A stretch of 13,914 nucleotides of DNA from a virus (IMGVR_UViG_2698536392_000012:1-13914); one strand, 5' to 3'; positions 2,405 through 11,268 are shown, counted from the first letter of the stretch. A program made the numbers and translations. Notes: a model not told the origin generated them from the letters alone.

Positions 2405-2683
2405 TTACCTCCAGATGCGTTGCTGGAATGTGCGGGACGGACGCGGTGGGCGTTCAGAGTAAGGAAGCCTGACGGAGATTATCCAGTGACGATAATCGAG
2501 GCTGAGGGCTTTCTTAATCCCGTATCCGTGTCTGCGGTAGCACTGAATTAGCCATTCAGCTTGTTCTTCAGTACATGGGGGATGCTGGTACCAATCAGAT
2601 TTGAATGTGCGGGAACGCCGCCCGTGCCTGCTGGCAAAGACAGCTGAATTATCAGAATTGTGTGATTTGGTATTGTGCGCCAT
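2405..2683 (-). CDS. Hypothetical nin-region protein (92 aa from internal ATG)
   Basis: The ORF-track start at 2764 lies inside the terminator hairpin, so the ATG at 2683 (MAHNTKSHNS...) is the more plausible start. Basic, Cys-containing, no recognised domain. Could correspond to the small rem-like gene found here in Qin-type prophages, but I cannot confirm this. Confidence 0.4.
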   Translation of the reverse strand: MAHNTKSHNSDNSAVFASRHGRRSRTFKSDWYQHPPCTEEQAEWLIQCYRRHGYGIKKALSLDYRHWIISVRLPYSERPPRPSRTFQQRIWR

Positions 2684-3115: not shown

Positions 3116-3592
3116 TTACATATAAAAATCGAACGACATCTGTTGTGTTCTCACGCCAATTGTTTCCAGTACGATATCCGCAAATGTATCTGCCTGCCAT
3201 TCTGCATCCTCAATACGAGTAGGTTCTTTAACTGAAAAGTGTAAAACTGCTTTGTGTCCAAGAAGCAAATGACCTAGCTCGTGGAAGATAACAGCAAGTG
3301 CATGCTCTTCCCCAAGGCAAGCATTCACATATATTTTATTGGGAACCGTAATTGTTAGAGAAGCGGGGTCACAATGTCCGATAGTTAGATCATACGTCAG
3401 AGCCTCCCACTCTTTGTCGGTCCTGACGTCAAGAGTAACCCCATAAATTGACAGGCTTTCAAAGAACATATCATAACGCTTTCTTTTGCGCTTTGAGGCT
3501 GTAAGACCAATAGCATTACAGAAGTTTATAGCTCTGTAGGCTATTTCTTCTTCTTGCATCGGTGACACCCTGTTACCTCTCATTTGATACAT
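3116..3592 (-). CDS. ImmA/IrrE-family (COG2856) Zn metallopeptidase
   Basis: 158 aa with HELGHLLLGH (HEXXH) and a downstream EDAEWQADTFA motif, the usual third zinc-ligand region of ImmA/IrrE peptidases. Strong SD (GAGGGG) inside the 3' end of the upstream HTH gene; 2-nt intergenic gap. Confidence 0.7.
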   Translation of the reverse strand: MYQMRGNRVSPMQEEEIAYRAINFCNAIGLTASKRKRKRYDMFFESLSIYGVTLDVRTDKEWEALTYDLTIGHCDPASLTITVPNKIYVNACLGEEHALAVIFHELGHLLLGHKAVLHFSVKEPTRIEDAEWQADTFADIVLETIGVRTQQMSFDFYM

Positions 3593-3594
3593 AA

Positions 3595-3954
3595 TTACCC
3601 CTCATTGTTATTAATCTTTTGCAATAAATCTGCAAAACTCTTTAGCTGTTCCGGCGTAAACTGCGACTTAGCGAATCCCGCTACAAGCATTTTCTGTTGC
3701 TGAGACAAACCGTTTACTGGAACTGAGTCATTCGCAACTGCCGCTAACTCCTGTAACCCTTCAATTTCTACACCTTTGGCCTTGAAGTAAGAATCAATCT
3801 TCTTAACCCACTTCAGAGGTATTTTTTTGCTACCAGTTTCTAAACCGCTAAGAAACGCTGGCGTAGTGCCCAGTTCTTGAGACATAGTCAGAAGAGTACT
3901 GTCAGTATCGATCCTCGCTTTTCTAACGGCCTTACCGAATTCAGTGAGTGCCAT
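3595..3954 (-). CDS. XRE-family helix-turn-helix transcriptional regulator (ImmR-like partner of ImmA)
   Basis: 119 aa. N-terminal HTH (LLTMSQELGTTPAFLSGLETG). SD GAGGA 8 nt upstream of the ATG, with an AT-rich promoter-like region further upstream. Confidence 0.75.
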   Translation of the reverse strand: MALTEFGKAVRKARIDTDSTLLTMSQELGTTPAFLSGLETGSKKIPLKWVKKIDSYFKAKGVEIEGLQELAAVANDSVPVNGLSQQQKMLVAGFAKSQFTPEQLKSFADLLQKINNNEG

Positions 3955-4198: not shown

Positions 4199-4354
4199 TT
4201 ACTCCTCAGGTTCGTAAGCTGTGAAGACAGCGACCTCCGTCTGGCCGGTTCGGATTCGTACCTCGCAGAGGTCTTTCCTCGTTACCAGTGCCGTCACTAT
4301 GACGGTTAAACAGATGACGATCAGGGCGATTAACATCGCCTTTTGCTGCTTCAT
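4199..4354 (-). CDS. hokD: Hok/Gef-family type I toxin (HokD/RelF-like)
   Basis: 51 aa MKQQKAMLIALIVICLTVIVTALVTRKDLCEVRIRTGQTEVAVFTAYEPEE, recognised from recall as HokD/RelF-like. SD AAGGAG 9 nt upstream. The ORF-track in-frame upstream extension (to 4411) is probably not used. Confidence 0.85.
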   Translation of the reverse strand: MKQQKAMLIALIVICLTVIVTALVTRKDLCEVRIRTGQTEVAVFTAYEPEE

Positions 4355-4598
4355 AGCCTGCTTCTCCTTGCCTTTCGGCACGTAAGAGGCTAGCCTACAT
4401 GTGCAAGTCATAGATATGGCCTCAGATTAATGTTAAGCGTCTTGCCGGACGCGTAATGTTAACTGGGGCTTTTCTCTGTCTGCCTTACGGCGGCATGCCC
4501 GAGGCAGACAGCCTCAAGCACCCGCAGCAATTCTACTTAACTCTCGCTTTACAGCAAACCGTTTTTGCCCGATATGGGAATTCCCATACGGAATGAAT

Positions 4599-4703
4599 TC
4601 AGTTCCCCAGGCGATCCATCAAAAACACAACCAGGCAGTAAACACCCACAACAGCAATAACAGCCAGAGCGCCTTCCATTACCAGTGAAATATCATCCGA
4701 CAT
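4599..4703 (-). CDS. Small hydrophobic peptide (34 aa), candidate small membrane protein or type I toxin-like ORF
   Basis: MSDDISLVMEGALAVIAVVGVYCLVVFLMDRLGN: acidic N-terminus plus one predicted TM helix. Very strong SD (AAGGGAGGG) 3-4 nt before the ATG, and promoter-like hexamers upstream. Not in the ORF track because it is under 60 aa. Confidence 0.35.
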   Translation of the reverse strand: MSDDISLVMEGALAVIAVVGVYCLVVFLMDRLGN

Positions 4704-4812
4704 ATTCCCTCCCTTGGTGTGAATTCCGGCGAACGTTTTTACCCCCACCGACAAATAACATATACTAGAAAAGCAATAGCTATAGCAACGCCTGCAAATG
4801 CATCGGGCCGGC

Positions 4813-5646
4813 TCATTGGTGCGCCCCCTGTATCGCTTCTACTGCGATCTGACTGGCGTATTTGTTAATGGTAACGATAAGTTCTTGCTCGGCCTCATCC
4901 AGACAACCACCGATACCTCGCCTGTCACCTTCAGAAGCATCGAAATCTGCACGAACCCTGGCGACCTTCAGGATTGCGGACAACACCTCATCAGGGATTG
5001 CCGGAGAGTTGGTTGACGTTTCCGAGGTTATCCGAAAATTATTGGTTGACGAATTCTTATTTTCCCGAAAGTTTTCGGCATGAAGCATGGCGGTGTTATA
5101 CCCATCCGCGAAAATCTCTGCTTCTTCGTTATTCAGTTCGGCACCAAGTTTAAGCGCAATAGCTTTTGCCATTGAGGCGGTAATTTGATGGCATGGCTGA
5201 CGTCCATGAAGCATGGCGTCGCTCCGCTCTATGCCATCCAGCGCAATTCGAAGCGCATGAATTGTAGTAATGCTATCGTTTGGGGTTATTCCGTATCGTT
5301 CGAATACAGCGATATGGTTGCGCATAATCGCAGGTGTAAGCTCTTTGTAAGCAAGAGCAAGAGGTCCAGATACATCGTTCAGCACTACCGTCATCGGTGA
5401 GGCGGCGTAGACTTCAATAATCCCAGTATCAATAGGCCATTCCCCATCCTTGATATAGTAACTTGTTCCGTCAACTTGCTGTTCTACAATGTGGAAAGCA
5501 CCTATTGGTTCTGCTTCCAGCGATGCCAGTGCAATTTTGAATAACTCGCCCTCTACCCGTGCCATCCCTGAATTGGGGTAGCATTTCGCAATCGCTATTT
5601 TTAATTTGGCTTCTTCGATTAATTTCTCTTTGGTTAATTCAGTCAC
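4813..5646 (-). CDS. Hypothetical protein (277 aa), unknown function
   Basis: Long ORF with a GTG start preceded by a CCGCCC-gaaa-GGGCGG hairpin. No recognised catalytic motif. Co-oriented downstream of the 70-aa and 119-aa genes. Confidence 0.55.
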   Translation of the reverse strand: MTELTKEKLIEEAKLKIAIAKCYPNSGMARVEGELFKIALASLEAEPIGAFHIVEQQVDGTSYYIKDGEWPIDTGIIEVYAASPMTVVLNDVSGPLALAYKELTPAIMRNHIAVFERYGITPNDSITTIHALRIALDGIERSDAMLHGRQPCHQITASMAKAIALKLGAELNNEEAEIFADGYNTAMLHAENFRENKNSSTNNFRITSETSTNSPAIPDEVLSAILKVARVRADFDASEGDRRGIGGCLDEAEQELIVTINKYASQIAVEAIQGAHQ

Positions 5647-9272: not shown

Positions 9273-9464
9273 ATGAGTACAGTCCTTTCCCCGATAATTT
9301 CAGAATTTGAAACAATCGAACAAGAAAACAGCTATAACGAATGGTTACGCACCAAAGTGGCAGCAAGCCTCGCAGACCCCCGTCCTGCAATTCCGCATGA
9401 CGAAGTAATGGCTGAAATGGAAAACCTTATTGCGCAAATAGCTTCGACGAACAGGAGTGAGTAA
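9273..9464 (+). CDS. PaaA-like antitoxin (ParE-associated antitoxin)
   Basis: 63 aa. The core SEFETIEQENSYNEWLR...SLADPRPAIPHDEV resembles PaaA2 of E. coli O157 prophages from recall. Strong SD (GGAGG). Its stop overlaps the toxin start (TAATG). Confidence 0.7.
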   Translation: MSTVLSPIISEFETIEQENSYNEWLRTKVAASLADPRPAIPHDEVMAEMENLIAQIASTNRSE

Positions 9465-9754
9465 TGCTGCCCATTTTATGGCTACCTTCTGCGCGTGATG
9501 ATTTGCGTCAGATCGTAGCCTATATTGCCAAGGAAAACCCTCCCGCTGCACGTAGACTAAAAATACGCATTGAAACATCAGTTTTGTCACTTTCTGAACA
9601 TCCTTACCTGTATCCACCAAGCGAAAGAGCTCTAGGCCTTCGTGAGATAGTGACCCATCCTAACTACATAATACTTTACCGAGTAACAGCATCTAACATC
9701 GAGATCGTAAATGTAGTTCACTCACGAAGGCAGTATCCAAACAAAAGCTGTTAA
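9464..9754 (+). CDS. parE: ParE/RelE-superfamily toxin
   Basis: 96 aa with the typical ParE pattern (W.P.A..DL..I..YIA..NP.AA, REIV, NIEIVNVVHSRR). Translationally coupled to the upstream antitoxin. Confidence 0.8.
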   Translation: MLPILWLPSARDDLRQIVAYIAKENPPAARRLKIRIETSVLSLSEHPYLYPPSERALGLREIVTHPNYIILYRVTASNIEIVNVVHSRRQYPNKSC

Positions 9755-11210: not shown

Positions 11211-11268
11211 TTCTGGTGACATTTGGCGGTATCAGTTTTACTCCGTGACTGCTCTGCCGCCCTTTTTT
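11211..11268 (+). ncRNA. dicF: DicF small regulatory RNA (ftsZ-targeting sRNA of Qin-type prophages)
   Basis: TTCTGGTGACATTTGGCGGTATCAGTTTTACTCCGTGACTGCTCTGCCGCCCTTTTTT matches the recalled E. coli DicF sequence nearly base for base, including the GGCGG/CCGCC terminator stem and T-run. Sits immediately upstream of dicB. Confidence 0.8.

Follow-up and report, generated by a model that had tools for sequence, protein, structure and literature searches.

The window, i.e. the whole 13,914-nt stretch of viral DNA analysed in this study (IMGVR_UViG_2698536392_000012:1-13914), is 100% identical to the prophage of Escherichia coli strains 2012C-4227 and 2013C-4830, and its minus strand is a lambdoid prophage's rightward early operon, in which the genes follow one another in this order: a cro-like HTH gene, a YdaT-like gene, a replication gene, DUF977, two genes of hypothetical proteins, a 277-aa ORF, two small ORFs designated here ORF-A and ORF-B, hok, an HTH gene with an ImmA/IrrE gene, DUF968, RusA and the Q antiterminator. 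The 277-aa ORF (4813..5646, minus strand), whose stop codon overlaps the start of ORF-A, gave no Pfam match in our scan. It is a mosaic, with N-terminal, middle and C-terminal parts matching different PHROGs, and the PGAP annotation covers only its last 288 nt, which are recorded as a DUF551 pseudogene, partial. The genes upstream of the small ORFs in two related loci (L032 and L033) carry PF04448 DUF551.

Several other elements of the window deserve a mention. The pair located between hok and DUF968 (3116..3954, minus strand) consists of a 119-aa HTH protein and a 158-aa ImmA/IrrE-type metallopeptidase; it shows weak PADLOC similarity to CapH/CapP-like regulators and is absent from this position in most related prophages. 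The leftward early region contains a match to the DicF small RNA (11211..11262, plus strand; Rfam RF00039, 77 bits). In the Qin prophage of E. coli K-12, relB-relE are placed directly upstream of hokD, and this gene order bears out the original prediction that ORF-B occupies the relBE slot upstream of hok. ORF-B has the same position as the Qin relBE relative to hok and to DUF968/RusA/Q, but it is unrelated to this type II toxin-antitoxin pair, and the window prophage has its relBE elsewhere: a relB/relE-family type II pair lies beside the cI-like repressor gene (~9345..9754, plus strand), as it does in locus L001 (148..629).

The hok/mok/sok module, all on the minus strand, comprises mok (4199..4411), hok (4199..4354) and an Rfam sok/hok-leader match (4349..4523), and its mok/hok ORF matches the Pfam HOK_GEF profile (PF01848) with E = 2.9e-23. 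A loose scan placed the likely hok promoter (TTGCTG, a 16-nt spacer, TAGAAT) at 4530..4557, minus strand; the Rfam model begins at 4523 and the high-identity homology of the hok module to phage Tritos at 4546. Between this promoter and ORF-B there is a perfect palindrome, TATGGGAATTCCCATA (4573..4588, without strand), which is unique in the window and would form an RNA hairpin of -12.8 kcal/mol lacking a U tract.

ORF-B (4599..4703, minus strand, ATG to TGA) encodes a 34-aa small membrane protein, MSDDISLVMEGALAVIAVVGVYCLVVFLMDRLGN. Its ATG at 4703 is preceded, at a distance of 3 nt, by the Shine-Dalgarno sequence AAGGGAGGG (4707..4715, minus strand), whose core A(A/G)GGAGGGAATATG does not vary, also in loci with divergence in the remaining spacer. 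Residues 11-29 form a single uncharged 19-residue hydrophobic stretch with a mean Kyte-Doolittle value of 2.72. The head in front of this stretch is acidic (net charge -3), and D30 and R31 follow on its C-terminal side. The original prediction of a minus-strand 34-aa ORF with a near-consensus Shine-Dalgarno sequence, a single TM helix and a short charged head was thus confirmed. Its description of the ORF as unannotated was not, as WP_001278459.1, ECs_2755 and ECs_5710 are public annotations of the same gene. The exact 105-nt CDS is present in the RefSeq record of strain 2013C-4830 as the hypothetical protein WP_001278459.1, identical over all 34 aa, and the counterpart in O157:H7 strain SS52 is WP_001278460.1. 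O157:H7 Sakai carries ECs_2755 (NP_310782.1, prophage Sp14) and ECs_5710 (Sp6), each identical to ORF-B at 33 of the 34 positions. WP_001278459.1, ECs_2755, ECs_5710 and XECs145 (the name given to the Sp6 copy in a published translatome, see below) differ from ORF-B only in prophage context, that of the window being distinguished by the HTH and ImmA/IrrE pair that follows hok. ORF-B itself is therefore already known as an annotated hypothetical protein with published translation.

Of the 5426 complete E. coli genomes, 732 (~13%) contain a 201-nt region that includes ORF-B, at 2050 places with 92.5-100% identity; the number of copies per genome has a median of 3 and a maximum of 6, and nearly all of them lie under a CDS named "hypothetical protein". 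The exact protein occurs on at least 1000 contigs of the protein collection. Outside this range, no confirmed relative was found with protein patterns, and no match with the DNA pattern, among the 185,579 species-representative genomes of GTDB, and an exhaustive HMMER search of 1.84 billion representatives together with a word-indexed protein search returned only members or fragments of the E. coli family. A 51-aa in-frame extension served as the query where the 34-aa sequence was too short. Scans of Pfam (E <= 1), PHROGs and NCBIfam gave no meaningful match to ORF-B, PADLOC gave only a chance-level match to Cmr5 (E = 0.022; neither ORF-A nor the short form of the family described below matched any of its models), and a profile search of the solved structures in the PDB gave no match. 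We found no paper text naming the ORF-B locus tags or accessions and no published functional test. As ORF-B is confined to E. coli prophages and its long form is absent from most isolated-phage records, it is clearly dispensable.

The length of ORF-B alone is not significant, since there are 38 ORFs of 25 aa or more that overlap the 2.5 kb around it. What places it beyond chance is its conservation, the pattern of changes over codon positions and the published ribosome footprints. From E. coli genomes, IMG/VR and metagenomes we gathered 149 ORF-B loci, each with its flanks complete. Loss of the frame in related prophages had been named in the original prediction as an observation that would speak against a gene; the frame was found to be intact in 149/149 loci, with products of 32-34 aa and an excess of synonymous changes. 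In codons 12-34, which were counted because the search pattern left them unconstrained, the minimum numbers of changes at positions 1, 2 and 3 were 7, 7 and 21, respectively (chi-square p = 0.004). In the comparison of ORF-B with the most diverged long form, MSDDILLAMEGALAVVAVMAIYCLVVFLIDRRGS, pN was 0.124 and pS 0.457. A separate locus search was anchored on the palindrome at 4573..4588; as this anchor lies downstream, the resulting sample is not biased by the 5' end of ORF-B. Four of the loci retrieved in this way have an ATG to GTG change in the start codon, with all else intact. Two ORFs of the opposite strand (4593..4688 and 4565..4660, plus strand) were considered and rejected, as their third codon positions do not fall on the variable sites. 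Judged by these sequence comparisons, ORF-B is a real gene, the peptide sequence of which is under purifying selection.

The exhaustive HMMER search also uncovered a diverged subfamily of 29-aa proteins, e.g. MLVLKCALAIAAVMAIYCLAVVLMDRLSD, which start with GTG preceded by the Shine-Dalgarno sequence ACAGGAGG. Between ORF-B and this short form dN/dS amounts to 0.13-0.37, with synonymous sites near saturation, and inside the short subfamily pN is 0.065 versus a pS of 0.57. Residues L7, A12, L13, A14, V18, Y22, C23, L24, V26, L28 and D30 are invariant in both subfamilies. The charge bias of the long and the short form predicts opposite membrane orientations, and because of this conflict we assign no orientation to ORF-B. 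In isolated phages HannyBb and Tritos the small ORF of the short form is mostly unannotated. The 29-aa relative is situated directly 5' of hok in Tritos (L167, ~2498..2587, where the copy is unannotated) and HannyBb (L166), as well as in L163 and L164, and it is also present in phages Evi and mEp460_ev081, where the match coincides with no annotated feature.

Upstream of ORF-B lies ORF-A (4739..4816, minus strand), which encodes a 25-aa hydrophobic peptide, MSRPDAFAGVAIAIAFLVYVICRWG; its ATG and the stop codon of the preceding gene overlap in an ATGA. As a separate, intact frame ORF-A is present in 143/149 loci (~96%), with variants of 25-27 aa, e.g. MNWPEAFAITGVAMAIAFLVYVICRWG and MTLPDAFAIVGITIAIAIIVYSICRWL, yet few records annotate it. 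The overlap persists in 152/162 loci, in spite of upstream C-termini of at least three unrelated classes. Over codon positions 1, 2 and 3, ORF-A shows 11, 9 and 22 changes, respectively (p = 0.03). No ORF-A was found in the short-subfamily loci that were read. A possible paralogy of ORF-A and ORF-B was rejected, the hhalign probability being 4.5%.

ORF-A ends in a run of five G residues (4742..4746, minus strand), and in rare variants a sixth G fuses it in frame with ORF-B to give a 74-aa product. Such fusions, each created by one extra homopolymer base, are represented by P0005, P0008 and P0009; the routes are a G6 run in L032 and a T7 run in L033. For a natural fused variant AlphaFold modelled two helices (residues 3-35 and 41-73), at a pTM of only 0.38. 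These rare fusions, the narrow taxonomic range, and the remnants of its 3' end that other prophages carry 5' of hok could be taken to mean that ORF-B is non-functional, having arisen by chance or by decay of an ancestral two-helix gene of 74 aa. We rejected the two-helix gene as the ancestral form, as despite the modelled helices the fusions are rare homopolymer slips. The split arrangement is ancestral instead, because the most diverged lineage has the stop codon, a 33-nt spacer and an identical Shine-Dalgarno sequence. As the split form, complete with a separate stop codon, a spacer and the invariant Shine-Dalgarno sequence, is kept in 143/149 loci, and as the third-position bias, the low dN/dS and the ribosome footprints all argue for a functional frame, the view of ORF-B as a chance ORF or fragment is largely refuted and can be given hardly any weight.

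Expression data were available for the Sakai copies from the work of Hücker et al. 2017 (PMC5597208), who analysed the transcriptome and translatome (RIBOseq) of E. coli O157:H7 Sakai and reported the values in S2 Table. In LB, ECs2755 had an RNA RPKM of 132.6, a footprint RPKM of 885.0, a ribosome coverage value (RCV) of 6.79 and a coverage of 0.95, compared with a mean RCV of 1.55 for 250 short annotated Sakai genes. In the BHI control the respective values were 167.7, 116.7, 0.76 and 0.99, and under BHI stress 164.6, 3.8, 0.02 and 0.65. The Sp6 copy, then unannotated, was reported as the novel gene XECs145 with an upstream-extended start (LB: RNA 79.1, footprints 346.1, RCV 4.35), and both Sakai copies were predicted to have one TM and to reside in the inner membrane (PMC5597208). 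As Sakai has four near-identical copies of ORF-B, the assignment of reads to any one of them is uncertain. Ribosome occupancy, the check proposed in the original prediction, is thus documented for ECs2755, with the qualification that these are footprints of elongating ribosomes and not initiation-site profiles.

In the same data set the upstream early genes gave far lower RNA/footprint values: 7.4/24.3 for ECs2758, 9.3/16.6 for ECs2760 and 25.1/49.0 for ECs1517. Among the short genes with an RCV of at least 0.25, a list which includes genes of up to 231 bp, neither ECs2754 nor ECs1520, the mok/hok CDSs of 213 bp, is present (PMC5597208). As the RNA and footprint levels of ORF-B far exceed those of the upstream early genes, we infer that expression of ORF-B in lysogens rises above the background of the early operon and that ORF-B is translated where the adjoining mok/hok toxin is not. 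The local ORF-B sequence was not found in the supplements of the EDL933 transcription-start paper, nor the ORF-B peptide in those of the EDL933 translatome. A preprint on Pas sRNAs was set aside, as it concerns other prophage positions and not the ORF-B locus.

The published RNA-seq suggests a local promoter, and for this reason we list a weak candidate inside ORF-A, TTGCTA-15-TAGTAT (4762..4788, minus strand), although with an 8/12 match and a poor spacer it is no better than chance. The promoter-like hexamers that had been claimed upstream of ORF-B turned out to be weak: the consensus scan found no minus-strand promoter there, and a looser scan found only this one site, running from 4788 to 4762. 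Neither scan gave a convincing sigma-70 promoter. The single promoter match of the consensus scan lies on the plus strand (4738..4766) and points away from ORF-B.

A small, hydrophobic, single-TM peptide that adjoins a genuine type I system, hok/sok, could itself be a type I toxin, i.e. a membrane-damaging peptide silenced by an antisense RNA or by the structure of its own mRNA. The original prediction had likened ORF-B to type I toxins and small membrane regulators, and had proposed a search for an antisense RNA promoter on the plus strand. This search, by consensus scans only (non-canonical promoters may escape them), revealed no plus-strand promoter of at least 9/12 across ORF-B and no plus-strand terminator. 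The looser scan detected a weak promoter-like site, TTACCA-16-CATATT (4679..4706, plus strand), which matches at 8/12 positions, or at 9/12 in variants with TTGCCA; a transcript from this site would begin near 4713, antisense to the edge of the Shine-Dalgarno sequence and to ORF-A. Rfam had no family match at ORF-B. The Shine-Dalgarno/start region is not sequestered (fold z = +0.62 versus shuffles), and the 206-nt region as a whole folds no better than shuffled sequence (z = -1.39).

No toxin or defence family of Pfam, NCBIfam, PHROGs or PADLOC showed a relationship to ORF-B, ORF-B has few basic residues, and it was translated with an RCV of 6.79 in growing Sakai cells, for which mok/hok is missing from the list of short genes with an RCV of at least 0.25. 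ORF-B resembles the Hok/Gef peptides (PF01848) with their Sok RNA in being a small hydrophobic inner-membrane peptide, encoded directly 5' of hok/sok in most loci (see below). Unlike Hok/Gef, it has no homology to that family (the HOK_GEF profile, which recognizes the adjoining mok/hok ORF, does not match it), no mok-like overlapping frame, no long folded leader and no detected antisense RNA; it is strongly translated in growing cells, and it is flanked by acidic or neutral, not basic, residues. Of the proposed architecture, the single-TM protein gene therefore stands, while most of the features of a type I toxin were not found. Given this and the strong translation during growth, there is little support for the toxin reading, which appears very unlikely, and we are confident that ORF-B is not a classical type I toxin.

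A frequent neighbour of ORF-B is hok. It is located ~250 nt downstream in 126/133 long-form loci and follows the small ORF in 42/42 short-form loci of IMG/VR, including phages HannyBb and Tritos, which makes 168/175 loci for both subfamilies combined. The linkage holds despite near-saturated synonymous divergence and varying upstream neighbours, and in the short form no terminator space is left before the hok promoter. It was also shown that a prophage-encoded hokW-sokW system is functional and speeds phage release (PMC8621323). One may imagine ORF-B as a Hok-linked membrane partner, which damps or times Hok, in which case the prophage hok loci would be three-component systems.

On the other hand, ORF-B remains intact in loci where an opposite-strand IbrB-like/PAPS-reductase pair replaces hok. 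Moreover, most hok loci lack ORF-B, as the hok part matches 4727 genomes versus 732 with ORF-B, and the functional hokW of Sp5/933W is among the loci without it. Nor do the two elements co-diverge: between the window and phage Tritos the hok module (from 4546 to 4111) is 94% identical, compared with 74% over 62 nt for ORF-B. The adjacency may be mere inherited synteny. The linkage of ORF-B and hok is thus old and frequent, but it is not obligatory, and a partnership with Hok of this kind seems unlikely. The fuller version of this idea, in which ORF-B, together with ORF-A where present, is made constitutively in the lysogen as a membrane partner of the prophage hok/sok and tunes or gates Hok, e.g. 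for early lysis as described for hokW, is in our opinion improbable. As a separate observation, in a minority of prophages the small ORF and the palindrome are followed by the IbrB-like gene and a PAPS-reductase/DUF3440 gene (L032, 3392..5247; L037, 2829..4684).

The proximity to hok allows for another suggestion, that ORF-B is a cis-acting upstream ORF, whose translation rather than its peptide affects read-through, Rho termination or folding into hok. Its strong Shine-Dalgarno sequence and short length, its position 42-76 nt upstream of the hok promoter/transcription start, and the lack of a terminator between ORF-B and that promoter are all compatible with such a device. However, the amino-acid sequence of ORF-B is under purifying selection (dN/dS 0.1-0.4), which a pure translation-coupling device would not show. 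In addition, ORF-B is retained intact without hok, and a hydrophobic TM peptide is atypical of regulatory leader peptides. We regard a purely cis-acting role as quite improbable.

The palindrome between ORF-B and hok is an element separate from ORF-B. It is also present 5' of hok in loci without ORF-B, at times beside a remnant of the ORF-B 3' end, as well as in places without hok; the short-form loci do not have it. Elsewhere it reaches 24-28 bp, as in CGATATGGGAATTCCCATATCGGG (L224, L232, L221 and L259). It is found at gene-module junctions of lambdoid prophages, often just 5' of the hok promoter; one occurrence is in a GC-rich contig (L237).

Based on our observations, we are confident that ORF-B is a genuine, translated gene for a small membrane protein (27-34 aa) in the rightward early ("nin") region of lambda-like E. 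coli prophages, and we suggest that its product is probably a single-pass inner-membrane microprotein expressed in the lysogen. Expression there would be driven by a putative local promoter in addition to the early operon, and the protein would be tolerated at high levels, as is not expected of a classical toxin. By analogy with other bacterial and phage microproteins, its TM helix may pack against a membrane partner. The features that could mediate such packing are the small-residue face formed by A12/L13/A14, V18, the Y22-C23 pair and the juxtamembrane D30-R31, and the conservation of this small-residue face suggests helix-helix contacts. The candidate partners, in the order of falling support, would be the ORF-A peptide, Hok, and a host membrane protein, the last of these implying a role in lysogenic conversion or exclusion.

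Small membrane proteins of this kind are known from bacteria and phages, e.g. AcrZ, MgtS, MgrB and the phage moron-type small membrane proteins. Like these microproteins, ORF-B is shorter than 50 aa and has one TM helix, its ribosome-binding site is strong, and normally growing cells translate it without evident harm. It differs from the class of AcrZ, MgtS and MgrB in having no sequence relation to named families and in being prophage-borne, multi-copy and confined to E. coli.

A gene of this type is unsurprising for a lambdoid nin region, and ORF-B is not new as a discovery. What is new are smaller points, i.e. the conserved ORF-A, the 29-aa subfamily, the quantified linkage to hok and the independence of the palindrome. 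Nevertheless, among the short genes of EHEC prophages ORF-B belongs to the more heavily translated ones; ~13% of complete E. coli genomes have it, in up to 6 copies each, and it still has neither a name nor a family. With a sequence under selection, an unannotated ORF-A neighbour and a hok adjacency that spans two deeply diverged subfamilies, it constitutes a tractable case for studies of small proteins. It could also bear on the way in which prophage hok loci are used, e.g. in lysis timing or exclusion, and, if the reading of ORF-B as a partner of Hok were true, a protein component would be added to the classic RNA-controlled hok/sok/mok system.
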